Below, piece after piece: positions 3,273 through 50,103 of a stretch of 64,000 bases of DNA. The notes below the pieces were generated by a model. The model worked only from the letters and a program-made list of their open reading frames with translations. It did no database searches and had not been told where the DNA came from. Source of the stretch: Patescibacteria group bacterium (GTDB lineage Bacteria; Patescibacteriota; Patescibacteriia; Patescibacteriales; GWC2-42-12); NCBI GenBank assembly GCA_041662965.1, contig JBAZRI010000001.1, forward strand, positions 163,680 to 227,679. Reading direction: 5' to 3'. How positions within the stretch are numbered: position 1 is the stretch's first letter; the number at the start of each line of letters is the position of its first letter. The translations under genes were made by a program, and so were the position numbers.

Positions 3273-5228
3273 ATGAATAGACGATTTTCTTTGCAAATAT
3301 ATATTTTTTTATTTATTTTTTCTTGGCCATTATTGTCGTCGGCCGCTACTAATCTTCTAACAGAGGGCCAATCTAATCCGACGGATGTAACAGACTTAAC
3401 TCCTGAATTTTCAGCAATCTACAATGATTCTGATTCCGGTGATGACGCAGTAAGCTACCAGCTTCAGGTTTCGGCTTCAAGCACTGACTGGACCAGTTTA
3501 ATGTGGGACAGCGATAAATCTCCTCTGGCGACTACCACCGAAGGCAGCAGGTCTCCGGATATATCTTATGCCGGCGACTCTCTCTCGGAAATGGGCGGTT
3601 ATGCTTGTTATTGGCGCGTTAAATTTTGGGATGAAGAAGATACCGAGGGCGCTTGGAGCACGAGCACGGCTTCGTTTATTATGGCCGGCTCAAACAACAT
3701 CCAAAATTTTAATTATACTTATGACGATATAGGCAATATTGCCAAAATTGAAGACTACTCCAATAATAACGGGGCTAAAATTATTGAATTTAATTATGAT
3801 GATTTATACAGATTAACTAGAGCTTCCAGTACCATGGCCTCTTCCACCAATTTTCTGGAAACCTACTCATATAACGCCATCGGTAATATTACAAATAAAT
3901 TAGATGTGGGGAATTACCTCTATCAAGGCAATTCCGGCACCAGCCAAGCCAATCCTCATGCCGCCACCTCGATTGACGGCGCGACAAACGCCTATGACCA
4001 TAATGGCAATTTAACCAGCGACGGAATCTGGGATTATACCTGGGATTACCGCAATAGGCTCATAGAGGCTACTAACGGCACTTCTACCCTGCGATATGGT
4101 TATGACCACGAGGATAATCGAATTTGGGCCTTTGACGGGGTGGCGACGACTACTTATATAAATAAGTATTATAATATTTCAAGCACGGGGACTAGTACTA
4201 TAAATATCTTCGCTAATAATCAATTAGTCGCTACCATAGAGGGTAATGGAATTGCGACCAGCACATATTATATCCATACCGATCACCTTGGCGGGTCAAA
4301 TGTAATTACTGATGAAAACGGCGACGTTGTACAGCTATTGGATTATTATCCGTATGGCGGAATACGGCTCGATGAAAAGAACGGTTTATTTGATGAAAAG
4401 AAAAAGTTTACCGGTCATGAATATGACGCAGAAACTGGACTCAATTATATGAATGCGAGATATCAAGATGGAAACATCGGACAATTTTTATCTATTGATC
4501 CGATGTTTTTTGATGTTGGAAAAGATAAAGCGATATTTAAACAGCAATATGATAAAGATATGGCCGCATTATTATCTAATCCGCAAGAATTAAATAGTTA
4601 TAGTTATGTAGTAAATAATCCGATAAACAAAAAAGACTTAACAGGAAAAGCTTTTGTCGTAGATGATGCTATCGGTTTTTTGGGAGGAGGATTAGTTGGG
4701 GCAGTTGTTCAGGGTGTTAGCTCTATTATAAATGGGCAGACTCCCCAATTAGCTGAACTTTCAGGTTCGTTTGTAACTGGAGGAATTATAGGATGGGGAG
4801 CTATTAATTCTCCTGAAACACTTGGCGCATCAAATGCAATTTCTGCCGCTATTATAACAGGGCTTTTGGGAGGATTTTATGGAGATTTAACAAAACAAGG
4901 AATTAATATAGCAACAGGAAAACAGGAAGGTGGTATTAATAGTAACGAGCTTAGCTCCAATACTCTTATTACTGCGGGTGCAGGTGGTTTAACGCAAGGT
5001 GTATTACCGAATGCAAAAGTTCCAGGGCTATCTTCTGGCCGCGGAAATATGAACGCAATAGGTGAATCAATGAGAACAAAGACAGTAAATGGTACAATAA
5101 AAAGTATGTCAATAAATTCTGCTACAAAATCCGCTGTAGGATCTCAAGCAGCCAATCTCTATCGTACAATCGTAAATGGGGCCGTAGATATAGCTCGTTC
5201 AATTTATAATAAAATTAAAGAAAAATAA
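3273..5228 (+). CDS. Sec-signal RHS-core protein with glycine-zipper-rich C-terminal tip
   Basis: N-terminal signal peptide MNRRFSLQIYIFLFIFSWPLLSSAA. It has the same FN3-like domain and RHS core as the upstream gene. The core-end motif NNPINKKDLTGK ends near 4649, followed by a Gly/Ala/Ile-rich tail (GFLGGGLVGAVVQG, TGGIIGWGA, TGLLGGFYG). Confidence 0.85.
   Translation: MNRRFSLQIYIFLFIFSWPLLSSAATNLLTEGQSNPTDVTDLTPEFSAIYNDSDSGDDAVSYQLQVSASSTDWTSLMWDSDKSPLATTTEGSRSPDISYAGDSLSEMGGYACYWRVKFWDEEDTEGAWSTSTASFIMAGSNNIQNFNYTYDDIGNIAKIEDYSNNNGAKIIEFNYDDLYRLTRASSTMASSTNFLETYSYNAIGNITNKLDVGNYLYQGNSGTSQANPHAATSIDGATNAYDHNGNLTSDGIWDYTWDYRNRLIEATNGTSTLRYGYDHEDNRIWAFDGVATTTYINKYYNISSTGTSTINIFANNQLVATIEGNGIATSTYYIHTDHLGGSNVITDENGDVVQLLDYYPYGGIRLDEKNGLFDEKKKFTGHEYDAETGLNYMNARYQDGNIGQFLSIDPMFFDVGKDKAIFKQQYDKDMAALLSNPQELNSYSYVVNNPINKKDLTGKAFVVDDAIGFLGGGLVGAVVQGVSSIINGQTPQLAELSGSFVTGGIIGWGAINSPETLGASNAISAAIITGLLGGFYGDLTKQGINIATGKQEGGINSNELSSNTLITAGAGGLTQGVLPNAKVPGLSSGRGNMNAIGESMRTKTVNGTIKSMSINSATKSAVGSQAANLYRTIVNGAVDIARSIYNKIKEK
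3363..4353. repeat. Copy B of the ~1 kb duplicated RHS block
   Basis: See 1066-2056. The encoded protein is identical from TEGAWSTSTASF through LLDYYP. Confidence 0.9.
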
Positions 5229-32571: not shown

Positions 32572-33012
32572 ATGAGTGAAGAGAAAAAATATCCTAAAGT
32601 AGTCGTTGGCGTGTTTATTTTTAATGATAAGTCGGAACTTTTTTTAATGGCTCATAGGTATTGGCAGAATAAATTTACCATACCGGGCGGTCATGTTGAA
32701 ATCGGAGAAAAATTTGAAGAAACGGTTAAGCGGGAAGTTAAAGAAGAAACTAACTTAGACATAAAAGACATAGAATTTTTGGATTTTGAAAATATGAATA
32801 ATTTAAAGACTAAATTTACCGGTCCGGTAAATCATTTAGTATCTTTCCTCTATAAGGTAAGAGCCAAAGGAGACCAAAAAGTTATATTAAATAAAGAAGG
32901 TAGTAGTTTCAAGTGGCAGACTGTCGAAGAATGGCTAAAGCAAAAAGAAGAAGTTACCGATTCGTCCGTTGAGCCGATGATTAAGTATTTTATAAATAAT
33001 AATCAGATATAA
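32572..33012 (+). CDS. Nudix hydrolase
   Basis: Nudix box GGHVEIGEKFEETVKREVKEETNL. Confidence 0.85.
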   Translation: MSEEKKYPKVVVGVFIFNDKSELFLMAHRYWQNKFTIPGGHVEIGEKFEETVKREVKEETNLDIKDIEFLDFENMNNLKTKFTGPVNHLVSFLYKVRAKGDQKVILNKEGSSFKWQTVEEWLKQKEEVTDSSVEPMIKYFINNNQI

Positions 33013-33016
33013 TGTT

Positions 33017-33880
33017 ATGAGTGAAGAAAAAGAGATTGATAATTTCGGATGTAAATATGCTATTACCGGAGTCAGCGCGTTTATTTTTAATAAAGATGGC
33101 AAATTACTTTTAACTAGGTCGCCGAAATGGGGTAATTTATGGGTAGTACCGGGAGGTAAAGTAGATTTCGGTGAAAGTATGGAACAAACTCTTAAACGTG
33201 AAATGAAGGAGGAATTAAATTTAGATATAAGCAATATAGAATATTTAACAACCATAGAACTTAATAGAACTGAAGAAAGGCCTAATTTACATATGGTGGT
33301 TAATGAATTTATTGCAACGGCCGACGACGATGACGTTAAATTGAATGATGAACATAGCGAATTTGACTGGCGCAAGCCCGAAGAATGGTTTAAAGAAAAA
33401 GATGTCTATCCAGCAACAAGAGAAATAATCGGATATTATTTAAATGAATTTTTGCCAAAGAAGGATTGTGAAAATCTTTATAAGCGCGCTCTAGCCGATT
33501 ACCAGAATTTGCTTAAGCAGACGGCCAAAGAAAAAATGGAATTCGCGGTTTATGCCAACGAGCAGATGCTAAGAGAAATTTTACCGGTGTATGATCATTT
33601 AAAAATGGCCATTGAGCATCACAGTGAAGAGTCAAAAGATGAATGGCTGACCGGAGTGAAGTTCGTCGTCAAGCAGTTTAAAGATGTTTTAGAAAAAATC
33701 GGTGTGGAAGAAATTACGGCTGAAAAAAAGTTTGACCATAATTTAATGGAAGCCTTAAGCAACGAAGAGACTGAAGATGAAAGCTTGGACGGGAAAGTGG
33801 CCAAGCAGGTAAAAGCCGGCTACAAGCTGAACGGGAAAGTGATTGAGCCGGCAAAAGTAATAGTTTATAAATTAAAATAA
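33017..33880 (+). CDS. grpE: Nudix-GrpE fusion protein (nucleotide exchange factor with N-terminal Nudix domain)
   Basis: The N-terminal ~140 aa carry the Nudix box GGKVDFGESMEQTLKREMKEELNL. The C-terminal half is GrpE (YKRALADYQNLLKQTAKE, LPVYDHLKMAIEH, FDHNLMEAL, GYKLNGKVIEPAKVIV). Confidence 0.85.
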   Translation: MSEEKEIDNFGCKYAITGVSAFIFNKDGKLLLTRSPKWGNLWVVPGGKVDFGESMEQTLKREMKEELNLDISNIEYLTTIELNRTEERPNLHMVVNEFIATADDDDVKLNDEHSEFDWRKPEEWFKEKDVYPATREIIGYYLNEFLPKKDCENLYKRALADYQNLLKQTAKEKMEFAVYANEQMLREILPVYDHLKMAIEHHSEESKDEWLTGVKFVVKQFKDVLEKIGVEEITAEKKFDHNLMEALSNEETEDESLDGKVAKQVKAGYKLNGKVIEPAKVIVYKLK

Positions 33881-36459: not shown

Positions 36460-36891
36460 ATGGAAAAGGCAAAAAACAATTTAGTTTATAATCAGCCTTG
36501 TCTAAAAAGCATAAGAAAAAAATTAAGGCAGCAAGATATTCCCGCTGAAAAAGTGTTGTGGAATAAAATTAGAAATAAACAACTAAAATATAAATTTAGA
36601 AGACAATACAGCGTCGGCAGATATGTGCTTGATTTCTATTGTCCGAAAGTTAAATTAGGCATTGAAGTTGATGGAGCAACTCATGGCAATAAAATTGAAA
36701 TAAAAAAAGATATTGGAAAAGAAAATTTTATTAATCGGTTTGGCGTTAAAATAATTAGGTTTATCAATTTTGACATTTATTATGAGATTGATGGTGTTTT
36801 AACTGAAATAAATAGTCAATGTGAAAAAAGAGAAAGTGAATTAAAAACCAGACCTCACCCCAACCCTCTCCTTATCAAGGAGAGGGAGTAA
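36460..36891 (+). CDS. DUF559 (Vsr-like endonuclease fold) domain protein
   Basis: [43 protein letters not shown]......D..FGVKIIRF matches the DUF559 pattern. The C-terminal tail [13 protein letters not shown] is encoded by the palindromic repeat. Confidence 0.75.
36864..36886. repeat. Hairpin ccctctcc-ttatcaa-ggagaggg at the 3' end of the DUF559 gene
   Basis: 8-bp stem located inside the last codons of the ORF. Confidence 0.75.
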
Positions 36892-41831: not shown

Positions 41832-43340
41832 TTATTTTTTTAATATCTCCTTCAATATCTCAATTAATAGTTTGGGGTTGGCTTTACCGCGCGTGGCGGC
41901 CATAACCTGGCCGACCAGAAACTGTAAGACATTGGTTTTTCCGGCCTTGTACTCGCCGGCTTGCTTCTGGTTTTTAAATAACACTTCGGCGATGATTTTT
42001 TCCAAAGCTTCCCGGTCGTCAAGTTGCTCCAGGCCTAAATCCGCCATTATCTCTGACGGGTCGCCGCCGTTTTTATACATTTTAGCTAAAATGGTTTGGG
42101 CGGCCGAAGAATTGATTTTATCCTGATAGACCAGGCAAATGAATTCGGCGAAATTTTCCGGCGTGATTTTATTGTCTTTAATGCTTAGATTATCATTTTT
42201 TAAATGTTTAAACAGCTCGTTAATCAGCCAGTTGGCCGCGGCTTTGGCTAATTTATGCTTTTGCCTTTCCCAGTCATCGCCCGAAGATTTAATCCAGGCG
42301 CGCAGTTCGGAAATTACTTTTTCGGCGTAGCCGGCCAAAGCTTTGTCCGAAGCCAGGATTTCCGCTTCATAATCGGAAAAACAATATTCCTCTTTAAACC
42401 TTTTTATTTTTTGCGCCGGCAATTCGGCCATCTCGGCTTTTATTTTATCAATCCATTTTTGGCTGATTTTTAAAGGCGGAATATCCGGCTCGGGAAAATA
42501 GCGGTAATCAGCCGAGGTTTCTTTTATCCGCTGGCTGAAAGTTATGCCTTTGTCATTATTCCAGCCGCGCGTTTCCTGAATCAGCTTGCCGCCGTCCGTT
42601 AAAGCTTTAATTTGCCGCTTGATTTCGTAATCAACGGCTTTTTCCATGTACTTAAAAGAATTTATATTTTTCAGCTCAACCTTGGGATTTAATTTATAAT
42701 CGCCGATGGGCATGATTTGCCCGTTGGTATATTTCCATTTGCCTTTTGCCTGCAGGCTGATATTGGCCTCGCATCTCATCTCGCCTTTTTCCATATCGGC
42801 GTTAGAGATATTCAGGAATCTTAAAATTTGCTGATAGCTTTGGGCGAATTTTTTAGCCGTGGCCGCGTCTTTTATAACCGGCTCGGTAACTAATTCAATC
42901 AAAGGCGTGCCGGCGCGGTTGTAATCCACTAAAGAATATTTTTTTCCGGCCGGATGGATTAATTTGCCCGTGTCTTCTTCAAGATGGATTCTGGTCACTA
43001 AAACCGGCTTATCGTCAACTTCCAAAAAGCCGTCGTAAGCGATCGGCAAATCATATTGGGAGATTTGGTAGCCTTTGGGCAGGTCGGGATAAAAATAGTT
43101 TTTGCGGTCAAACTTGGAAAGTTTATTGATTTTGCAATTTAAAGCCAGGCCGATTAAAATAGTCCATTCAATGGCTTGCTTATTAGGCAGAGGCAGAGTG
43201 CCGGGATGCGCTAGGCAGATCGGGCAGACGGTCGTATTGGGCTTTTTGTTCTGCGCGTCGTTATCGCACGAGCAGAACATTTTTGATTTGGTTTTTAGCT
43301 CGGCGTGTATTTCCAGGCCGATAATGACGTCGTATTCCAT
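41832..43340 (-). CDS. gatB: Asp/Glu-tRNA amidotransferase subunit B
   Basis: IGLEIHAEL, the zinc site CPICLAHPGTLP, and a C-terminal YqeY-like tail. Confidence 0.95.
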   Translation of the reverse strand: MEYDVIIGLEIHAELKTKSKMFCSCDNDAQNKKPNTTVCPICLAHPGTLPLPNKQAIEWTILIGLALNCKINKLSKFDRKNYFYPDLPKGYQISQYDLPIAYDGFLEVDDKPVLVTRIHLEEDTGKLIHPAGKKYSLVDYNRAGTPLIELVTEPVIKDAATAKKFAQSYQQILRFLNISNADMEKGEMRCEANISLQAKGKWKYTNGQIMPIGDYKLNPKVELKNINSFKYMEKAVDYEIKRQIKALTDGGKLIQETRGWNNDKGITFSQRIKETSADYRYFPEPDIPPLKISQKWIDKIKAEMAELPAQKIKRFKEEYCFSDYEAEILASDKALAGYAEKVISELRAWIKSSGDDWERQKHKLAKAAANWLINELFKHLKNDNLSIKDNKITPENFAEFICLVYQDKINSSAAQTILAKMYKNGGDPSEIMADLGLEQLDDREALEKIIAEVLFKNQKQAGEYKAGKTNVLQFLVGQVMAATRGKANPKLLIEILKEILKK

Positions 43341-43346
43341 ATTTAA

Positions 43347-43982
43347 TTATTTCCATTCTTTAATAAATTGTTTGATAAATAATTTAGTAAATAAATATTT
43401 ATCTTTAGCAATTTTTTTGGCGACTTTAGTGTTTAAATGTTTATAAGCCGACAATTCAAAATTTAAAGTATGTAAAACGCTGAAATTTCCCCCGAAAATA
43501 ATATGGGGGCTGAATTTAATATTTTTATTCCACATCGTTTTGTTATATTTTCCAGCCCAGATAAAATTTCTGCCAACGCCGATTGCTCCAAGAGATTCTA
43601 TCCTATCGGCATCTTGGAAAATTTTTATTTCTAATTCTTTTGGCTTATGTTTACAATGATTCTTAACCCAGCAGTAATTATCATGTTCTTTAATAATTTT
43701 TAAAACTATAGGTATATTATTTTTCGGAAATTTTATTTTAGTTAAAATTTTAAAGGCTAATTTAACCGATTCATGGCTGTGCTCATTATGAGTTTTATTT
43801 ATATAGCCGATATCATGGAGCAGGGCAGCGGCATATAAAATATCAAGATTAGCCTTTTTATAACTTTTAGAGATTATTTTGCAGATTTCATAAATCCTTA
43901 AGCCATGGTCTGCTCGATGAGCTACGTCCAAGTTATCTAATTCAGTTTTTGCTATAGTTAATAATTTTTTTCTCCAATCCAT
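43347..43982 (-). CDS. HD-domain phosphohydrolase
   Basis: H...HD pattern (AHRADHGLRI ... AALLHDIGY ... DADRIESLG). Confidence 0.75.
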   Translation of the reverse strand: MDWRKKLLTIAKTELDNLDVAHRADHGLRIYEICKIISKSYKKANLDILYAAALLHDIGYINKTHNEHSHESVKLAFKILTKIKFPKNNIPIVLKIIKEHDNYCWVKNHCKHKPKELEIKIFQDADRIESLGAIGVGRNFIWAGKYNKTMWNKNIKFSPHIIFGGNFSVLHTLNFELSAYKHLNTKVAKKIAKDKYLFTKLFIKQFIKEWK

Positions 43983-44043
43983 ACATATTGAATTTATATA
44001 GTAATTTTACCTAAATTATTAACAAAAGTAAAATGAAGAAAAA

Positions 44044-45219
44044 TTAAAACAGCCCCGAACTGCCAAAGCAGCCGTCTTTTCTGTCGGTTTCATCCGCGAC
44101 GCGCCCTTCAACTATTTCCGGCAATTCAATCTTTTGAATTAATAATTGGGCGATTTTCTGTCCGGGCGCGATGTGGAAAATATCTTGGCCTAAATTTATG
44201 AGCTCTACGGTAACTTCGCCTCTGAAGCCGGCGTCAATCACTCCGGCTAAAGAGTGGATGCCGTTTTTCGCCAATCCGCCTTTATCCCAGACTAAACCAA
44301 CAAACCCTTTAGGCAGGGCGATTTTTATTCCGGTTTTTATTATGGCGTATTTTCCCGGAGTTAAAGAATGATAGTCGGCCGAATATAAATCCAGCCCGGC
44401 GTCGTATTCGTAAGCGCGGGTCGGCAATTTAGCCCAGGAAGATATTTTTTCAACTTTAAGTTTTAAAATGTTTTCTTCGGCGCCGGTCGGCGATATGCTA
44501 TTGTGTAATTCTTTAAAGTTGGCCGAATAGGGCGCGGGTTTAAAAAGCCTGATAATTTTTTCCCAGATTAAATTGCTGATATCTTCGCGGCTTAGCATTC
44601 GCCCGTCGGCAACGCATTCAATCAAGGTAAAATTCGGGAAATTTTGCGCTATTTGCGAATAAGTTTGTTCGGCTTTTTTCAAGTGGTTAAGGTCGTTTTG
44701 GTGGATGTCGTTGGTTTTGCCGTTCCAGTCTTGCTTTAGCCTGCTTTGGGCCAGTTGCTGGGAAATCTCCGCGTCCACATGGAGGATGATATTTAAATCC
44801 GGCTTAGGGATATCAAAAATTTCATATTCAAGCTGATAGAGCCAATCAAAATAATGTTTTCTTTCCAGATCGTTAGAAATTTTACCCCCTTGGTGCCCCA
44901 TATTGGCCGTAACGTAGCGGTTGGAAATGACTATTTTGCCTTCGGCCAACCAGGTTTTTATTTTAAAGCTGGCGTCATAGCGGTCGCAAGCGTAAAAAAT
45001 AGAAGCCCGGTACGGCCCGACTTCTTCCGGACTGCCGTATTTTCCGGAAAGATATTCCTCAACCATGCCGGCAGATTTAGTGTTATATTGGGGAAAATCG
45101 GCGATAGCCACGTTAAAACCGGCCCGCCAGAGTTTTTCAGCTAAAAGCTGGGTTTGCGTGGCTTTGCCCGAGCCGTCGGTGCCGTCTATAACGATAAATT
45201 TTCCGCGTTGTTTTTCCAT
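44044..45219 (-). CDS. tmk: Thymidylate kinase - dUTPase fusion protein
   Basis: The N-terminal half has the Tmk P-loop IDGTDGSGKAT and the DRY motif (ACDRYD). The C-terminal ~140 aa is a trimeric dUTPase (YDAGLDLY, GVIDAGFRGEV, DGCFGSSG). Confidence 0.85.
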   Translation of the reverse strand: MEKQRGKFIVIDGTDGSGKATQTQLLAEKLWRAGFNVAIADFPQYNTKSAGMVEEYLSGKYGSPEEVGPYRASIFYACDRYDASFKIKTWLAEGKIVISNRYVTANMGHQGGKISNDLERKHYFDWLYQLEYEIFDIPKPDLNIILHVDAEISQQLAQSRLKQDWNGKTNDIHQNDLNHLKKAEQTYSQIAQNFPNFTLIECVADGRMLSREDISNLIWEKIIRLFKPAPYSANFKELHNSISPTGAEENILKLKVEKISSWAKLPTRAYEYDAGLDLYSADYHSLTPGKYAIIKTGIKIALPKGFVGLVWDKGGLAKNGIHSLAGVIDAGFRGEVTVELINLGQDIFHIAPGQKIAQLLIQKIELPEIVEGRVADETDRKDGCFGSSGLF

Positions 45220-45283
45220 GTTTTTAGATAAGAAAAGAGCGCTTTTTAAGCACTCCTCCTTTATTAAATATCCTGATTATAAT

Positions 45284-45838
45284 CTAGCTGTTTAAAATGA
45301 TTTGGTCAATCTGCTTGTATAAATCCTCCAGGCTGCCATTATTATTTATTTCCAGGTCGGCCTTAGCCATTACCATCGGAATTTCGGCGTCGGCTTCTTT
45401 ATTATGGTCTTCTAAAAATTGTTCAAAAGTTTTATCAGCGTCGTCGGGATTTTCTTTGCGTAAAACAATTCTTTGATATCTTATTTTCGGATCGGCCGCG
45501 ATGCGGACTAATTTAAAATTTCCCATTTCAGCTAAATATTTTATGTCCACCAGCCTTCTTACTCCGTCAACCGCGACAATTTTATTTTTATCATTGGCTA
45601 CGTCGCTGGCCATAACTTTAGCGATAATATCTTCGCCGAAATATTGCCTTAGAGCCGTAGAAATAAATTGCATATTTTCCCTGGCGTCCGGGATATAAAG
45701 CCGTTTCAGCACGTCTCTGAGCATGGTAGAAAACCGGTAGGGGCTGGCGCCATGTTTTTCTTTTAAATATTTAACTGTTGTTCCTTTGCCCGCGGCCAAT
45801 AGCCCGACGAAGCCGAGAATAATTTTTTTATTTTCCAT
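45284..45838 (-). CDS. P-loop nucleoside/deoxynucleoside monophosphate kinase-like protein
   Basis: Walker A GLLAAGKGT in a ~180-aa small-kinase architecture. Substrate unknown. Confidence 0.5.
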   Translation of the reverse strand: MENKKIILGFVGLLAAGKGTTVKYLKEKHGASPYRFSTMLRDVLKRLYIPDARENMQFISTALRQYFGEDIIAKVMASDVANDKNKIVAVDGVRRLVDIKYLAEMGNFKLVRIAADPKIRYQRIVLRKENPDDADKTFEQFLEDHNKEADAEIPMVMAKADLEINNNGSLEDLYKQIDQIILNS

Positions 45839-45840
45839 AA

Positions 45841-46350
45841 TTATTTATTTTTTAAAGCGTTTTTTATTAATTTGCCGCTGCCGCGGTTGCCTAGGAGATT
45901 ATAAAATTTTATCCGGTTAAGCTTTTTTATATCAATCCATTCGGCCATATCGGTATATTTTTTTTCATATTCATCAAAATTATCTTTTGATAATTTGCCG
46001 CCGGTTTTTTTAACTAAAAAATAAAATAATTGGCAATTCCAATATTTTTTTCTCATGGTTGAATGAAAAAGAGAGCTGCCGACGTAGATAATTTTACCCC
46101 GTTTAACTTTAAATCCGGTTTCTTCCCAAAATTCTCTTTTTAAAGTATCTTCAATGGTTTCATGAAGTTCGGCGCCACCACCGGGAAAGTCATAGCCGTC
46201 CCATTGTTTTGAAAGCAATATTTTATTTTTTTCTATTAAAATTCCGTAAATTGATGGGCGAAAAGTTAATTTTTTAGCATCTACTTTATATAGCTTGCCG
46301 TTTATGTCGCGGCAGACAACTATTTTTGTTTTATTTTTTGATTTTTTCAT
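45841..46350 (-). CDS. Nudix hydrolase
   Basis: Nudix box GGGAELHETIEDTLKREFWEETGF. Confidence 0.85.
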   Translation of the reverse strand: MKKSKNKTKIVVCRDINGKLYKVDAKKLTFRPSIYGILIEKNKILLSKQWDGYDFPGGGAELHETIEDTLKREFWEETGFKVKRGKIIYVGSSLFHSTMRKKYWNCQLFYFLVKKTGGKLSKDNFDEYEKKYTDMAEWIDIKKLNRIKFYNLLGNRGSGKLIKNALKNK

Positions 46351-46854
46351 TTAATATAATATTTTGTATTTTAGCATTATAGCGTTATCGTTTATTTTTT
46401 TTATTTCTTTTAGCTCTAAATTAATATTAAAATCTCCATTGAATAATCCCAGGCCGGCGCCGAAGATTTTCGGCTCAACCGTTAAAATTATTTCGCTGAT
46501 TAATTTTTTTTCTAGAAACAGGGTATTTAAAAAAGCGCCGCCGCCGAGCAAGGCCGAAGCATAGCCCATTTTTTCCAGTTCAGCTAAAACCGGCTCAATC
46601 TCGCCCGACACCCATTTTACTCCGGCCCGTTCCGGCGGATTTTTTTCTAAAGTAAAAACAACATTCAGCCGATCTTTAAGAGGCGAGGGGAAAGTGGCGA
46701 AGGTTTTTTCGCCCATCATAACCGCGCCGTGCTGTTTAGAAATTTCGGCGAACAGTTTTTTGTCTTCTTTGGACGTCCAATCGGGGAAGTGGCCGCTGGT
46801 TTTGGCGATTTTACCGTCGGCCGTTATGGCCATCATTAAGGTTACGGAAATCAT
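46351..46854 (-). CDS. Dihydrofolate reductase-family protein (RibD C-terminal-like)
   Basis: MAITADGKIA..., GEKTF and LLGGGAFLN are typical of the RibD_C/DHFR-like reductase fold. Confidence 0.6.
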   Translation of the reverse strand: MISVTLMMAITADGKIAKTSGHFPDWTSKEDKKLFAEISKQHGAVMMGEKTFATFPSPLKDRLNVVFTLEKNPPERAGVKWVSGEIEPVLAELEKMGYASALLGGGAFLNTLFLEKKLISEIILTVEPKIFGAGLGLFNGDFNINLELKEIKKINDNAIMLKYKILY

Positions 46855-47736
46855 TTATTTATTATAATTTTTTAAGAATAAATCCAATTGTTTAAGCAGG
46901 TCGTTTTCATCTTTGGCCTCGATTTGTTTTACGGCAGCCGGGTTACCACGCGCCATACGGCTGACTTTTTCTCCCTGATACCACCATAAGATAATATCAG
47001 AAGCTGTAATTCTGGCGATTTCTAATTCAGCGCCAACACCCAGGCTGGGTAAGCCGACATAAGCGATTATTAAATCCGCGCTGGCGACTTCATGATGATC
47101 TTTTTTCCAGACCGCCAGAGGCGAGACCCGGGGGTTTTTTATCGGATCAGTTCCACCAAGATGAGGCACATAAACATTAGAGCAAATTTTAGAGCAAATT
47201 GCGGCGATTTTTTGGTAAGTTTCCCTATGGGCCGAATTTGTTTCGTTGGTGAGCGCGCCGCTAATGTATATTTTTCCCACGGATGAGGAAAAATTAAATT
47301 TATTATAAGAATTTTTAACCAAATAAACATTTTTTATACGCGCTTTAATTATCGTGTCCCAGCAATTTTTACAGCACCACCAGTGACCGTATAAATATAA
47401 ATCTGCATCTTTACTATCTTGTCCGTTAGCTTTAGCGTTATTGGTTGAAGTTACTTCGCTGTGTCCAGTTTGTAAGCATACCTCTTTGCAATAATGATAG
47501 TCCTCTCCGGTTTTACTGCCATTTAAAACTCGCGGGCAAACTTCTATTTTTTTACCGGCATTACAGCCACGGCCGATAATTATTCCATTTTTTACTATAA
47601 CAGCGCCGGTAGGCTGTTTAGAACAGCCGGTAGTCTCGGCCATTTTTTTCGCTTCAATCATAAACTGATTATCTTCGGCGACGAATTGGATGACTTTACC
47701 TTCGGGGAGATAAGGATATTTTATTGGTTCGGTCAT
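46855..47736 (-). CDS. dCMP deaminase fused to a DNPH1/Rcl-like nucleoside 2-deoxyribosyltransferase-family domain
   Basis: The N-terminal half has the deaminase zinc motifs GHSE and WWCCKNC. The C-terminal half has IYISGAL and ADLIIAYVGLPSLGVGAELEIA, compared with human DNPH1 YFCGSI and ADVVVAEVTQPSLGVGYELGRA. Confidence 0.75.
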   Translation of the reverse strand: MTEPIKYPYLPEGKVIQFVAEDNQFMIEAKKMAETTGCSKQPTGAVIVKNGIIIGRGCNAGKKIEVCPRVLNGSKTGEDYHYCKEVCLQTGHSEVTSTNNAKANGQDSKDADLYLYGHWWCCKNCWDTIIKARIKNVYLVKNSYNKFNFSSSVGKIYISGALTNETNSAHRETYQKIAAICSKICSNVYVPHLGGTDPIKNPRVSPLAVWKKDHHEVASADLIIAYVGLPSLGVGAELEIARITASDIILWWYQGEKVSRMARGNPAAVKQIEAKDENDLLKQLDLFLKNYNK

Positions 47737-47740
47737 ATTT

Positions 47741-48403
47741 TTAAATTTTATATTTTTCTTTAAGCTGGTCTAACTGGCCTTGTTTGATTAAATCCATTTC
47801 TTCTTCGCTGTCGGAGCGGCTTTCTAAGCCGTAAGGTGTAGATTCAAAATATTTAGCGTCTTTTAAGCCGTGTTTTTTGGCGTCTTCATCGGAAATCGGA
47901 GATGATAGAGTCTGGAAAGTCAGATGAGAAATTCTTTCGCCCGGATATAATTTAATAATTTGCGTATCGGTATTGTTGACGATAGGGAAGGTAAGCGTGC
48001 CCTGGTATTTTACGTCAATCGTGCCATTAGCGATAAACAGGCCTCTCCTTAAAAGAGAGCTGCGGGCATTAAGCTGGGCCATGATTTGATCGTCTTTCAA
48101 AGTTATTTTTTCCAATGATGAAGCAATTATAAATTCTTTAGGCAACAGTTCAAAATATTGCCCGGGTTTTAATTTAACCAAGTCAAAATTATCTTGGGCC
48201 GATTCTTTAGCGTTAAAATAATCAAAGTTAATGGCAATCCGGCCGTTTTCGGAAAGTTTCCATTTTTTTGGTATATAAAAACTGTAGCCTAGGCGCAAGT
48301 CAACGGCATGAGGCTGGATTTGGTATTGGTCAAGCCGGGGGTCAAAAATGATTTTATTATTTTTTAAATAATCCAAAATTTCCTGTTTGCTAAGTAGCGA
48401 CAT
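47741..48403 (-). CDS. dcd: dCTP deaminase/dUTPase-superfamily protein lacking the deaminase Glu
   Basis: AVDLRLG, ARSSLLRRG and GTIDVKYQG follow the Dcd-family layout. The strand equivalent to E. coli IVLEF reads LTFPI. Confidence 0.75.
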   Translation of the reverse strand: MSLLSKQEILDYLKNNKIIFDPRLDQYQIQPHAVDLRLGYSFYIPKKWKLSENGRIAINFDYFNAKESAQDNFDLVKLKPGQYFELLPKEFIIASSLEKITLKDDQIMAQLNARSSLLRRGLFIANGTIDVKYQGTLTFPIVNNTDTQIIKLYPGERISHLTFQTLSSPISDEDAKKHGLKDAKYFESTPYGLESRSDSEEEMDLIKQGQLDQLKEKYKI

Positions 48404-48419
48404 ATTTTTAAATTAAGAT

Positions 48420-49250
48420 TTAAAGCACGATTTTTAAACCCTGAATCGGCGGCAACGGTTGGTATTGAGCGGTTAATTTACCGACAATTTCTTCAACTAA
48501 AGAATCATCGGCTTTTTCCGCCCGCTCAAACCAATTTTCTTGAGGCTCAAGCGAAATTTTCGGATGCTGGTTATCCCGTTCCAATATTTCCCAGGCGGCT
48601 TTATAATGAATATCATATATGTGGGCGTTGCTGATGGAGTGGGTTAGCCGGCCCGGCTTAACGCCAAGTTTAGCCGCCAGAATGTATTGCAGTAAAGCAA
48701 AACCGGCTACGTCATGCGGACAACCTAATATCATGTCGTTGGAGCGGACGATGGAATGAATATGCAATCGGTTGCCTATAATATTGACGGTAAACGTGTA
48801 AGGACAGGGGACATTTTTCTTTTTGTTGCCCGAGCCTAGGCCGTCGTCGGACGGATCCCAAGTGATAATTACGGCATGGCGGGAACCAGGCTGCTCTTGC
48901 AAATGCTTAATTAAGGAATCAATTTGGTCGCGGCCGAAATGTTTACGCCATCTATAGCCGTAAGCCGCGGCCACCGTGCCGTCTTCTTCGGTAAAATCAT
49001 CCCAAATTTTAGTATATTTTTTTAAAAATTCATCCGGACGATTGGAACCTGTTAAAAACCAAATTTGTTCGGCTACAAAAATTTTTATGGGTATTTTTCT
49101 TAAGGTTAAGAGGGGAAAACCATCATCTAAATGCAAAGTAATGCCCGGGACGATTTTTGTTTTATGGCCGGTTCTTTCGTTATATTCTTCATAGCCGTTA
49201 TTCATTATTTCCCAAATAGCTTCCTTATATTTTTGGTCAAATTGAGTCAT
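48420..49250 (-). CDS. thyA: Thymidylate synthase (ThyA) family enzyme with Asp at the Asn177-equivalent position
   Basis: NERTGHKT, DGFPLLTLRK, EQIWFL, YGYRWR, catalytic Cys in VPCPY, VRSNDMILGCPHDVAGFALL, and SNAHIY. Confidence 0.8.
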   Translation of the reverse strand: MTQFDQKYKEAIWEIMNNGYEEYNERTGHKTKIVPGITLHLDDGFPLLTLRKIPIKIFVAEQIWFLTGSNRPDEFLKKYTKIWDDFTEEDGTVAAAYGYRWRKHFGRDQIDSLIKHLQEQPGSRHAVIITWDPSDDGLGSGNKKKNVPCPYTFTVNIIGNRLHIHSIVRSNDMILGCPHDVAGFALLQYILAAKLGVKPGRLTHSISNAHIYDIHYKAAWEILERDNQHPKISLEPQENWFERAEKADDSLVEEIVGKLTAQYQPLPPIQGLKIVL

Positions 49251-49373
49251 GGTTTTGTCTGTGAATAAGTATTAAGCGTTATTACATTTTACCAAATCAT
49301 TCAGAATAGGGCAAATTCACCCAGTTAAATAATTTTTTTAAGAAAATCAGCGCAAAGCGTTATTTAATGTAGT

Positions 49374-49405
49374 AAAAAAATACCCACCGTTTTTTGGTGG
49401 GTTTT
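49374..49405 (-). terminator. Intrinsic terminator of the 223-aa gene
   Basis: Stem cccacc / ggtggg, with a T-run on the minus strand. Confidence 0.75.
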
Positions 49406-49431: not shown

Positions 49432-50103
49432 CTAGCGGACAGCCGCGAGCCAAACTGCGCTGCCACCTTTATATTCGGGATCTGCTGGGCGGTAAGCTTT
49501 AATTTTTTTACCATCATGATATTCCCCGAACGAAATAAAACACAAACGACCATTGGCATCTTTCCAGAGAACATCAATGATGCGCGCTTTCTGAAAAATA
49601 GAAGGATTTTTTTTAAGTATGTCGACCACTTCGTAAGGATTGGCCCACCGTTTATAGCCACGGCTTTTAAGCTCAACTTCAGCTACGTTATAACGCAGGC
49701 TGACACCCTTATGGAAAAATTCAACAGGAATCTTGATTTTTTTATTTTTCGGCATAGTCGAAATCACATCATCATCGAATTCAATCTCCCAACCATTTTT
49801 CCTGAAAAAAGAGAACATTTTCTGCGCCGTTTGATTATAATTTGGTTTAGATAACCTTCTAAATACATTTTTAGCATCTTCTCGTAAGTCTTCAGCAACA
49901 TCTCTTAGCGGGAAATAAAGTAAGCTGTTTAGTAAGTACTTAGCACGCACCTCGTTATTGAGAATTAGCCGCGCGTCTTTATTGCTTAATCCTAAACATT
50001 TAGGGTTATTACGCAAAATACCGAAAATCATGTTTATTAATTTTGAAACTAGAGCCTGCTTGTCTGAAATTTTTAAATTTTTTCTTGCTCTTACTTCTGT
50101 CAT
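49432..50103 (-). CDS. Hypothetical 223-aa protein (standalone transcription unit)
   Basis: SD caggagga lies upstream, with its own promoter and terminator. No recognisable domain. Confidence 0.55.
   Translation of the reverse strand: MTEVRARKNLKISDKQALVSKLINMIFGILRNNPKCLGLSNKDARLILNNEVRAKYLLNSLLYFPLRDVAEDLREDAKNVFRRLSKPNYNQTAQKMFSFFRKNGWEIEFDDDVISTMPKNKKIKIPVEFFHKGVSLRYNVAEVELKSRGYKRWANPYEVVDILKKNPSIFQKARIIDVLWKDANGRLCFISFGEYHDGKKIKAYRPADPEYKGGSAVWLAAVR

Follow-up and report, generated by a model that had tools for sequence, protein, structure and literature searches.

Eight co-directional genes for pyrimidine deoxynucleotide metabolism lie on the minus strand at positions 43347-49250 of a 64,000-nt stretch of DNA from a Patescibacteria group bacterium (contig JBAZRI010000001.1, positions 163,680 to 227,679; the whole stretch is called the window below). 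Their clustering raises the question of which nucleotide they make. A first-pass annotation of the window had offered an ordinary dCTP-to-dTTP pathway as the conservative answer, and the synthesis or policing of a modified cytosine nucleotide, 5-methyl- or 5-hydroxymethyl-deoxycytidine (dC), as the alternative. The conservative answer turned out to be less well supported than the synthesis of a C5-modified cytosine nucleotide. The most economical purpose of the operon would be the production of thymidylate via 5-methyl-dCMP, and not necessarily the production of modified DNA. We propose, with a rough probability of 0.55, that the cluster is a chromosomal housekeeping operon that makes thymidylate with a reversed order of steps, from dCTP via dCMP and 5-methyl-dCMP to dTMP and dTDP, with a dihydrofolate reductase (DHFR) recycling the folate.

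The positions and the strand of the open reading frames (ORFs) were confirmed. The gaps between the eight genes are 16, 4, 0, 0, 2, 64, and 61 nt, and gatB follows 6 nt beyond the last gene, exactly as had been annotated. Domains were called by profile searches with Pfam and NCBIfam, and residue numbers are E. coli numbering unless stated otherwise. All domains named in the first-pass annotation were recovered by Pfam, NCBIfam, profile, or fold comparison, in the order thymidylate synthase (TS; Thymidylat_synt), DCD, dCMP_cyt_deam_1 plus an Rcl/DNPH1-like domain, RibD_C/DHFR_1, NUDIX, P-loop kinase, Thymidylate_kin plus dUTPase, HD, and GatB.

The TS homologue groups with dCMP methylases

The TS homologue (48420-49250, minus strand; PF00303, 184.5 bits) is predicted to be a dCMP C5-methylase (5-methyl-dCMP synthase) of the type found in the phages Xp12 and PaMx74. 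Alignment with three solved TS structures ('RSNDMILGCPHDVAGF' versus 'RSADIFLGVPFNIASY') showed that Asn177 is replaced by Asp, while the nucleophilic Cys is kept. The catalytic set Cys146, Glu58, Tyr94, Arg166, and Asp169 and also Ser167 are retained in an alignment with E. coli ThyA and the enzymes of Xp12, PaMx74, and T4 (gp42). In canonical ThyA, Asn177 and His147 contact O4 and N3 of dUMP; the window enzyme has Asp and Pro at these two positions. It was most similar to the enzymes of PaMx74 (161 bits, 35% identity) and Xp12 (157 bits, 37% identity), which both have Pro147 and Asp177, followed by E. coli ThyA with His147 and Asn177 (108 bits, 27% identity) and T4 gp42 with Thr147 and Asp177 (47 bits, 22% identity), the most distant relative tested.

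The residue states are traits of a large family. Asp177 was present in 119 of 120 close homologues, which are 65-95% identical and come from many Patescibacteria lineages, and the motif was not found in the remaining one. Among the 150 best representatives of 50%-identity clusters, positions 147 and 177 co-varied: 98 had Pro and Asp, 24 had another non-His residue and Asp, and 16 had His and Asn. In a neighbour-joining distance tree, calculated without bootstrap, the smallest clade uniting the window enzyme and the Xp12 enzyme comprised 106 sequences, all with Asp177, and the Asn177 sequences formed a separate clade. The best phage relatives all belonged to the Xp12/PaMx74 clade, which comprises 75 of the 4,411 phage records containing a TS homologue of any kind. 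By its sequence, the window enzyme thus falls into a Pro147/Asp177 clade together with the dCMP methylases of Xp12 and PaMx74, which have been validated biochemically.

In the MetaGPA study, positions 177 and 147 were the top discriminators of phage contigs with modified versus unmodified cytosine (PMC8670742). According to work cited in PMC8670742 and PMC5175136, exchanging Asn for Asp turns TS into a dCMP methylase, and enzymes that naturally have the Asp use cytosine nucleotides as substrates. The Xp12 enzyme and five of seven metagenomic Asp177 enzymes gave 5-methyl-dC (5mdC) in E. coli when T4 gp1 was co-expressed (bioRxiv 10.1101/2024.12.05.627091). In the DNA of Xp12, cytosine is fully replaced by 5-methylcytosine (5mC), and the same has been reported for PaMx74.

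If the cluster were an ordinary dTTP operon, the TS homologue would be a dUMP methylase despite Asp177 and Pro147, the Dcd-like protein would be a dCTPase or a Dcd-fold dUTPase, the deaminase would convert dCMP to dUMP, and the rest would work as in Gram-positives. All genes would fit this classical scheme from dCTP to dTTP. Public databases annotate window-type TS and Dcd-like proteins as "thymidylate synthase" and "dCTP deaminase", and the literature on the Candidate Phyla Radiation (CPR) calls the TS gene thyA. The window enzyme also passes the TIGR03284 equivalog cut-off (122.6 versus 108.35), but it scores far below five other ThyA equivalog cut-offs (NF002497, 149.9 versus 327; NF002495; NF002496; NF002499; TIGR03283). 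Furthermore, Asp177 in combination with a non-His residue at 147 is an established signature of cytosine specificity, and the grouping of the enzyme with dCMP methylases of proven function, separate from every Asn177 enzyme, points in the same direction. We consider an ordinary dTTP operon unlikely; further evidence on both sides of this explanation came from the partner genes and is given below.

It is also conceivable that the TS homologue makes 5-hydroxymethyl-dCMP, either for DNA with 5-hydroxymethylcytosine (hmC), like that of T4, or, in concert with the deaminase and a DNPH1/MilB-like hydrolase, to make or dispose of 5-hydroxymethyl pyrimidines. Asp177 is common to T4 gp42, MilA, and BcmA, and the two of the seven tested Asp177 enzymes that gave no 5mdC would be in line with this explanation. 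The two New England Biolabs (NEB) papers have published no sequence rule that splits methylases from hydroxymethylases among the Asp177 enzymes. However, the distant gp42 does not have the TS-like C-terminal closing tail ('YQPLPPIQGLKIVL') that is kept in the window enzyme, and it has Thr147, while Pro147 of the window enzyme matches the 5mC phages. Arg126 and Ser167 of the window enzyme represent the pattern of deoxy-specific enzymes, whereas MilA and BcmA, which are specific for CMP, have Lys/Ala (rule in PMC5175136); this argues against a MilA-type CMP substrate. No glucosyltransferase or other hmC-modifying transferase was seen in the 64-kb window. Hydroxymethylation releases tetrahydrofolate (THF), and DHFR is needed only where dihydrofolate arises. 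A tightly linked DHFR gene would therefore be unnecessary next to a hydroxymethylase. A hydroxymethylase system thus appears very unlikely. Because of the TS-type tail, the linked DHFR, and Pro147, which is common to the 5mC phage enzymes, reductive methylation is favored over hydroxymethylation, and the predicted products from dCMP and methylene-THF are 5-methyl-dCMP and dihydrofolate.

The Dcd-fold partner has lost the deaminase glutamate

The second gene encodes a Dcd-fold protein (47741-48403, minus strand; PF22769, 94.7 bits; TIGR02274, 103.5 versus 92.8), which is predicted to be a dCTP pyrophosphatase that supplies dCMP. In an alignment with the Dcd proteins of E. coli and M. tuberculosis, the catalytic Glu (Glu138 and Glu129, respectively) is replaced by Pro ('LTFPIVN' versus 'ITLELSN'). 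Three sets of homologues yielded uniform results. Pro was present in 76 of 81 sequences (3 Ser, 2 gapped), in 115 of 120 (5 Ser), and in 82 of 82, and Glu was found in none of them. Both altered catalytic residues noticed in the first-pass annotation, Asp177 and the Glu-to-Pro change, were thus verified by alignment, and both are family traits. The nucleotide-binding R-S-S..R motif (Ser111/Arg115) and the motif-III Asp are conserved in the family. In addition, a family-specific C-terminal tail of about 40 residues with an invariant E-x6-G-x5-K (47741-47860) is present, which is absent from Dcd and dUTPases.

Judged from its residues, the Dcd-like partner cannot act as a deaminase, and it would correspond to a bifunctional Dcd-Dut that has kept its pyrophosphatase half and lost the deaminase half. 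The loss of Glu rules out deamination and does not identify the substrate. The missing Glu could not be used to discriminate between a dUTPase and a dCTPase, because the dUTPase of the Sulfolobus islandicus rod-shaped virus (SIRV) keeps the Glu. The dut models gave only 26-31 bits on the window protein (cut-offs of 102-130), and no RGxxGFGS-type motif V was found at its C-terminus. T4 gp56 was rejected as a homologue, since the two proteins do not align. A phage-wide tblastn search with the Dcd-like protein retrieved only Dcd/dUTPase relatives of archaeal viruses. A scan of viral contigs for a Pro variant beside a TS with Asp177 (TS-Asp) yielded only distant, dUTPase-like sequences of one family, which have Val or Ala at this site and no TS in their vicinity.

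In summary, the alternative in the first-pass annotation gained support from the clade of the TS homologue and from the Glu-less Dcd, with 5-methyl-dC as a likelier nucleotide than 5-hydroxymethyl-dC.

A remodelled dCMP deaminase fused to an Rcl-like domain

The third gene (46855-47736) encodes a fusion protein. Its first domain (residues ~1-150; 47287-47736, minus strand; PF00383, 49.9 bits) is a dCMP-deaminase domain with the zinc motif 'GHWWCCKNCW', and it is predicted to deaminate 5-methyl-dCMP to dTMP. The HSE (H-x-E) and CCKNC (C-x-x-C) motifs are intact, and the profile matched the dCMP deaminase of S. mutans (2hvv) with E=1.3e-12. Two motifs differ from those of canonical enzymes. The usual F-P-C-x-x-C is replaced by H-[W/Y/F]-W-x-C-x-x-C-[W/L], and the H[WYF]WxCxxC form was present in all 64 intact deaminases linked to TS-Asp. 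The allosteric G(Y/W)N(A/G) motif, as defined in PMC12088426, is not conserved, and the window deaminase reads 'GCNAG'. The window deaminase is nearer to the S. mutans enzyme (41.6 bits) than to the Xp12 deaminase, with which it shared no significant pairwise similarity. By these sequence criteria, the operon deaminases are a subfamily distinct from the 5mC deaminases of phages. Deaminases of the DCTD type accept 5-methyl-dCMP (PMC12088426).

The second domain of the same polypeptide (residues ~151-293; 46855-47286, minus strand) is an Rcl/DNPH1-like 2'-deoxynucleoside 5'-phosphate N-hydrolase domain, identified by profile and fold. It was weakly visible with the single sequence (E~0.2), and the profile matched rat Rcl with E=1e-8 and human DNPH1 with ~2e-8, closer to DNPH1 than to MilB. 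The AlphaFold2 model had a mean confidence (pLDDT) of 91.8, and the best Foldseek matches were DNPH1 structures with target TM scores of 0.77-0.82. Y157, D213, E237, and the phosphate-binding Ser231 correspond to Y24, D80, E104, and S98 of DNPH1. The two fusions that had been annotated, this one and the Tmk-dUTPase fusion (PF02223 plus PF00692), are both real, and the CPR origin of the DNA had likewise been recognized correctly.

The Rcl-like domain bears on the hydroxymethylase explanation, as it resembles DNPH1, an hmdUMP (5-hydroxymethyl-dUMP) hydrolase, and MilB and BcmB, which are hmCMP/CMP glycosidases. In human cells, DCTD followed by DNPH1 is a known route for the disposal of hmdCMP. 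However, the Rcl-like domain was found in only 14 of the 86 loci described in the next section. In L003 it is a separate gene.

The closest genome (L007, 10001-14825; TS 92% identical) has the same gene order, but its deaminase, of 182 aa, lacks the Rcl-like domain, and the HD gene is missing. Both the fusion with Rcl and the presence of HD are therefore recent changes specific to the lineage of the window.

Conservation of the operon core and an Asn-type counterpart

The first-pass annotation had proposed a comparison across Patescibacteria genomes. A genome scan retrieved TS relatives in 416 species-representative genomes, and the neighbors within 8 kb were analyzed for 86 fetched TS-anchored loci, a few of which were redundant. 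A Dcd-like gene was present in 80 of the 86 loci, a dCMP deaminase in 66, a DHFR-like gene in 62, and Tmk in 43. The remaining neighbors were gatB (33), the small kinase (26), dUTPase (25), the Rcl-like domain (14), Nudix (3), and HD (2). The conserved core therefore consists of five to seven genes, namely TS-Asp, Dcd-like, dCMP deaminase, DHFR-like, and Tmk, with or without the gp1-like kinase and the dUTPase. Thus, the eight-gene operon of the first-pass annotation holds for the window, whereas Nudix and HD are additions of this lineage.

The arrangement recurs in the 86 TS-anchored loci and in further loci anchored on the Dcd-like gene, which is far beyond chance. Carriers within the Patescibacteria include Falkow-, Kuenen-, Uhr-, Magasanik-, Jackson-, Doudna-, Davies-, Woese-, Shapiro-, Taylor-, Colwell-, and Harrisonbacteria. 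Outside of this group, some Anaerolineae and Ktedonobacterales of the Chloroflexi carry it as well, with about 61% identity. Several gene fusions were found, including Dcd-like(Pro) with the deaminase (P0341, 387 aa), the deaminase with a Leu147/Asp177 TS (P0141, 433 aa), and the deaminase with a YfbR-like HD 5'-deoxynucleotidase domain (P0330, 431 aa), the latter weak and just below the cut-off with 25.6 bits. The fusions tie three core activities, Dcd-like, deaminase, and TS, together. A Doudnabacteria locus encodes a HAD hydrolase.

A second set of neighborhoods was anchored on the Dcd-like gene and was therefore unbiased for the type of TS. Two well-diverged Asn-type loci were found, L155 in a complete Dojkabacteria genome (CP129475.1, 6069-10243) and L213 (2662-7654). 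In both, the DHFR-like and Dcd-like(Pro) genes, plus Tmk in L155, are accompanied by a TS of the canonical type (His147/Asn177) and by a canonical PCxxC deaminase in which the GY-type motif is intact. For 32 of the Dcd-like-anchored loci, both genes could be resolved. TS-Asp occurred with an HxWxCxxC deaminase in 30 of 30 cases and TS-Asn with a PCxxC deaminase in 2 of 2, and mixed pairs did not occur (Fisher p=0.002). A concerted change in TS and deaminase is what a swapped order of reactions predicts. If the substrates were those of an ordinary dTTP operon, this co-variation of TS and remodelled deaminase would remain unexplained. The Dcd-like(Pro) protein is common to both TS types, which fits a dCTP-to-dCMP step feeding either version.

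Two further loci had unusual compositions. In the Chloroflexi bacterium WY2.bin104 (L085, 5790-12690), a class II ribonucleotide reductase, a short-chain dehydrogenase/reductase, a second Dcd-family gene without the Glu, an Rcl-like gene, TS-Asp, a TS-like paralogue, and Dcd-like(Pro) lie together. The TS-like paralogue is divergent and has no nucleophilic Cys, and no deaminase was detected near this locus. In another Patescibacteria genome (L001, 8812-9879), an antisense gene of the Beta-lactamase2 family is situated between the TS-Asp and DHFR genes.

A predicted thymidylate pathway with methylation before deamination

In the proposed pathway, the Dcd-like protein would hydrolyze dCTP to dCMP and pyrophosphate, TS-Asp would convert dCMP and methylene-THF to 5-methyl-dCMP and dihydrofolate, and the DHFR-like reductase would regenerate THF. 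The remodelled dCMP deaminase would then convert 5-methyl-dCMP to dTMP, and Tmk would phosphorylate dTMP to dTDP. The fused dUTPase, the Rcl/DNPH1-like domain, Nudix, and HD may act as pool-cleaning accessories against dUTP, dead-end dUMP, and possibly 5-methyl-dCTP. An Asp177 enzyme should use dUMP poorly, and therefore dUMP from the dUTPase or from off-target deamination would be a dead end. More speculatively, a dead-end dUMP would explain why the deaminase is fused to or located beside putative destroyers of deoxynucleoside monophosphates (dNMPs), i.e. the Rcl-like domain, the YfbR-like domain of P0330, and the HAD hydrolase of the Doudnabacteria. Where the gp1-like kinase is present, some of the flux may instead pass through triphosphates, from 5mdCTP to dTTP, as in Xp12.

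Several points weigh against this pathway. Residues, clade membership, and the gene context are the basis on which its substrates and products were predicted. Since Dcd-fold dUTPases exist (SIRV), also without motif V, hydrolysis of dUTP is a possible activity of the Dcd-like protein too, and in the Dojkabacteria operon its partner is a canonical TS. Both observations are also in favor of an ordinary dTTP operon. The co-variation of TS and deaminase is based on only two Asn-type loci, and the Fisher test ignores phylogeny. Some Chloroflexi loci have TS-Asp and Dcd-like without a detectable deaminase nearby. Two of the seven Asp177 phage enzymes yielded no 5mdC, and mSCD-B5, the only deaminase of such a phage module that has been characterized, uses 5mdCTP and not 5mdCMP (bioRxiv 10.1101/2024.12.05.627091); the CPR deaminases are not orthologues of mSCD-B5. 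On the supporting side, the operon lies in a housekeeping chromosomal context, and a search of the 64-kb window for other TS, ThyX, or Dcd genes, of the kind that the first-pass annotation had proposed for the genome, found none.

The literature searches agreed with the earlier statement that no such pathway has been described for CPR bacteria. In the literature found, no dCMP methylase of a cell and no cellular route with methylation before deamination was described. The NEB papers cover phages only, and the searchable literature treats the Patescibacteria gene as a plain thyA. The phage route was known before; the novelty would lie in the occurrence of an Xp12-type route in cells, as a housekeeping operon in which a Dcd-fold protein takes the pyrophosphatase slot and the deaminase comes from a subfamily of its own.

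If the prediction is true, the operon represents a third cellular solution for thymidylate synthesis beside ThyA and ThyX, via 5-methyl-dCMP instead of dUMP, which so far would be known only from a few phages. The labels "thymidylate synthase" and "dCTP deaminase" would then probably be wrong in hundreds of Patescibacteria and Chloroflexi genomes, and metabolic reconstructions would need revision. The Asn-type and Asp-type versions of one operon frame would be a natural experiment in the reordering of steps by a concerted change of specificity in two enzymes. The operons would also be a source of dCMP methylases, a Dcd-fold dCTPase, and possibly 5mC-selective deaminases, a class that is already used in methylome sequencing.

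The remaining operon genes and two further explanations

The DHFR-like reductase (46351-46854, minus strand; PF01872, 70.7 versus 24.1; PF00186, 38.5 versus 25) is predicted to recycle the dihydrofolate from the reductive methylation. It is followed by a Nudix hydrolase (45841-46350, minus strand; PF00293, 52.8 bits), a lineage-specific addition whose relatives in the PDB were only uncharacterized structural-genomics entries. The small P-loop kinase (AAA_17/18; 45284-45838, minus strand) is a remote member of the phage dNMP-kinase family with T4 gp1. It matched phrog_139 over its full length (E=9e-25, 88.8 bits, compared with 222.6 bits for gp1 itself), while the pairwise score with gp1 was 25 bits and the score of the Pfam DNMK model, 21.7, was below the cut-off of 27.1. 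The kinase also matched the archaeal AdkA-like protein 3lw7 (E=2e-14).

The Tmk-dUTPase fusion (44044-45219, minus strand) comprises a dTMP kinase (residues ~1-225; 44545-45219; PF02223, 77.9 bits) and a trimeric dUTPase (residues ~246-391; 44044-44484; PF00692, 100.1 bits), the latter matching solved dUTPases with E=1.8e-31. The same fusion occurs in L007, L009, and L022. In an ordinary dTTP operon with a Dcd-fold dUTPase, a second dUTPase would be redundant in the 25 of 86 loci that carry Dut, the window among them. In the fused dUTPase domain, motif 2 reads 'DKGG' instead of 'PRSG', the Tyr of motif 3 is replaced by Phe, and the Lys-for-Arg change is a clade trait. A Glu at the Dcd catalytic position of this domain raised the idea of a swapped deaminase. 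This was rejected, as the Glu is unique to the window and absent from 13 operon-linked homologues, and the domain is a standard dUTPase. The last gene encodes an HD-domain phosphohydrolase of the YedJ/PRK10119 type (43347-43982, minus strand; PF01966, 49.3 bits; NF007515, 67.6 bits, below the cut-off). It is lineage-specific as well, and only uncharacterized HD hydrolases were found among its PDB relatives.

The kinase raises the possibility of genomic 5mC as in Xp12. The gp1-like kinase would phosphorylate 5-methyl-dCMP for incorporation, with 5mC in place of much or all of the cytosine in the cell's DNA, while the dCTPase lowers dCTP and the deaminase diverts some of the product to thymidine. 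The functions that make up the Xp12/PaMx74 module are represented in the operon, together with a kinase of the T4 gp1 PHROG family. As 5mdCMP reached the DNA of E. coli when gp1 was co-expressed (bioRxiv 10.1101/2024.12.05.627091), lineages with the kinase might make 5-methyl-dCTP and deaminate or incorporate it. A scan for motifs of Dcm-type methyltransferases gave zero matches in 2.06 Mb of such contigs, which is weak evidence as the scan was crude and the amount of sequence small. 5mC is invisible to Illumina-based metagenomics, and the ultra-small bacteria, which pass 0.2 µm filters, have been sequenced almost solely by Illumina.

However, the kinase occurs in 26 of the 86 loci only, compared with 43 for Tmk, which is needed for the monophosphate route, and it is only remotely gp1-like. 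The deaminase resembles canonical dCMP deaminases more than the 5mdCTP deaminases of phages, and the deaminase-TS fusions suggest that 5mdCMP is channelled straight to dTMP. Literature searches on 5mC or methylomes of Patescibacteria retrieved nothing relevant, and a report of 5mC-rich CPR DNA was not found, which is absence of evidence. To our knowledge, no cellular organism fully replaces a canonical base. Taken together, genomic 5mC is improbable. A combined and broader claim is even somewhat more doubtful, namely that many Patescibacteria and some Chloroflexi have no dUMP-dependent TS and derive all their thymidine via 5-methyl-dC, and that in lineages with both the gp1-like kinase and the Dcd-fold dCTPase 5mC incorporated during replication replaces a large fraction or all of the cytosine. 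If true, pre-replicative substitution of a base would be seen here for the first time in cellular organisms, and such 5mC in CPR DNA would bear on restriction and defense biology, on mutation spectra, and on screens for modified viral DNA.

Another explanation is that the cluster is not biosynthetic at all but an anti-phage nucleotide-depletion island or a purely pool-sanitizing island. The kinase matched the P-loop region of the PADLOC model for the anti-phage 'dCTPase' (dCTP deaminase) with E=1.4e-8, and NF041025 with E=0.0018. Nudix, HD, dUTPase, and the Rcl-like domain are nucleotide hydrolases. However, these hydrolase accessories are the least conserved parts, while Tmk, DHFR, and the TS-family enzyme are anabolic. 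No PADLOC system was matched; Nudix, the kinase, Tmk-dUTPase, and HD gave weak isolated domain matches, and TS, the Dcd-like protein, the deaminase, and the DHFR-like reductase gave none. In addition, the cluster is kept at one chromosomal position beside gatB across lineages. A defensive or sanitizing island is thus the least credible of the explanations considered here.

Boundaries of the operon and its chromosomal surroundings

Upstream of the operon, a terminator-like hairpin (49382-49402, minus strand; 7-bp stem with 5 GC pairs, followed by a T-run) ends the upstream gene and marks the upstream boundary of the operon. A promoter-like site, TTGCCC-17-TG-TAAAAT with an extended -10 (49286-49314, minus strand), lies about 35 nt upstream of the TS start codon; it is a consensus match only. 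The hairpin at 49402-49382 and the extended -10 site before TS suggest that the cluster has its own start. In the region, 33 promoter-like sites were counted compared with 25.0 +/- 5.0 in shuffled sequences, so that an enrichment is not clear. Downstream of the operon lies gatB (41832-43340, minus strand), a conserved syntenic neighbor that is functionally outside of the pathway. The gatB-miaA-miaB synteny was seen again in L154.

The rest of the 64-kb window is an ordinary Patescibacteria chromosome with type IV pilus genes, mraY/ftsW/murG/PBP, hrcA-grpE-dnaK-dnaJ, miaA/miaB, L11/L1/NusG, and clpB. No prophage features were present in the window, and a search for a riboswitch, leader RNA, or tRNA near the operon found none anywhere in it. 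Several neighboring genes had unusual features. The 223-aa protein directly upstream of the operon (49432-50103), which has its own terminator, was matched by nothing in Pfam, NCBIfam, PHROGs, or PADLOC. GrpE (33017-33880, 287 aa) carries an N-terminal NUDIX domain and is directly preceded by a stand-alone NUDIX gene (~32572-33012), both situated between hrcA and the hsp20/dnaK genes. An ORF with a DUF559 domain, a Vsr-like nuclease fold, sits between dnaK and dnaJ (36460-36891) and has a weak, sub-threshold likeness to the N-terminal nuclease domain of PvuRts1I-type enzymes. Two tandem large proteins (205-2895, 896 aa, and 3273-5228, 651 aa) have an Ig_Rha78A_N domain as their sole recognizable feature, apart from a sub-threshold RHS match in the first, and may be surface proteins.

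Comparison with known systems

The first-pass annotation had likened the operon to the T-even phage toolkit (gp56, gp42, cd, frd, gp1, td). Function for function, this likeness holds: a dCTPase (predicted in the operon), an Asp-type TS, a dCMP deaminase, a DHFR, and a dNMP kinase (putative in the operon) are common to both, and the kinase belongs to the PHROG of gp1. In contrast, the TS homologue is only 22% identical to gp42, which has Thr147 and no TS tail, gp56 is not homologous to the Dcd-like protein, and the window has neither a second TS like td nor a glucosyltransferase. Furthermore, the T4 genes are dispersed.

With the antibiotic pairs MilA/MilB and BcmA/BcmB, i.e. a CMP hydroxymethylase and an hmCMP N-glycosidase of nucleoside antibiotic synthesis, the operon shares an Asp-type TS and an Rcl-fold glycosidase. 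It differs in having Arg126/Ser167 instead of the Lys/Ala for ribo substrates, and its context is deoxynucleotide metabolism and not a biosynthetic gene cluster. The human pair DCTD and DNPH1 (Rcl) likewise places a dCMP deaminase and a DNPH1-fold hydrolase in series. In the window the two are fused, with the triad and the phosphate-binding Ser conserved, and the fusion is limited to a subset of lineages (14 of 86 loci). The human pair sanitizes salvaged 5-hydroxymethyl-dC outside of dTMP synthesis, whereas the Rcl-like domain of the operon presumably clears dUMP.

The canonical routes to dTMP (Dcd, Dut, and ThyA; bifunctional Dcd-Dut and ThyA; dCMP deaminase and ThyA) share with the operon the protein folds, the start at dCTP or dCMP, the end at dTMP and Tmk, and the recycling by DHFR, and in the Dojkabacteria the operon frame itself exists in an Asn-type version. 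In contrast, the window-type operon has the Asp177/Pro147 TS, the Glu-less Dcd fold, and altered zinc and allosteric motifs, and it is predicted to run through 5-methyl-dCMP where the canonical routes run through dUMP.

The closest precedent is the 5-methyl-dC module of siphophages of the Xp12/PaMx74 type and not the hydroxymethyl-dC toolkit of T4. In Xp12 and PaMx74, a MazG-like nucleotide pyrophosphohydrolase, the dCMP methylase, a gene of the dCMP-deaminase family, and a DHFR lie side by side. The operon has the same four functions clustered, its TS belongs to the same Pro147/Asp177 clade (35-37% identity), and its DHFR is adjacent. A route to thymidine nucleotides by deamination of a 5-methyl-dC nucleotide was described for Xp12 in 1982, as cited in PMC12088426, and by NEB in 2024 (bioRxiv 10.1101/2024.12.05.627091). 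The differences are that the pyrophosphatase of the operon has a Dcd fold while that of the phages is MazG-like, that its deaminase belongs to the separate HxWxCxxC subfamily, and that Tmk, dUTPase, and the gp1-like kinase are built into it. In addition, the phage module is viral and serves the production of fully 5mC-containing DNA, whereas the operon is a cellular, chromosomal housekeeping unit, the purpose of which is likely dTMP.

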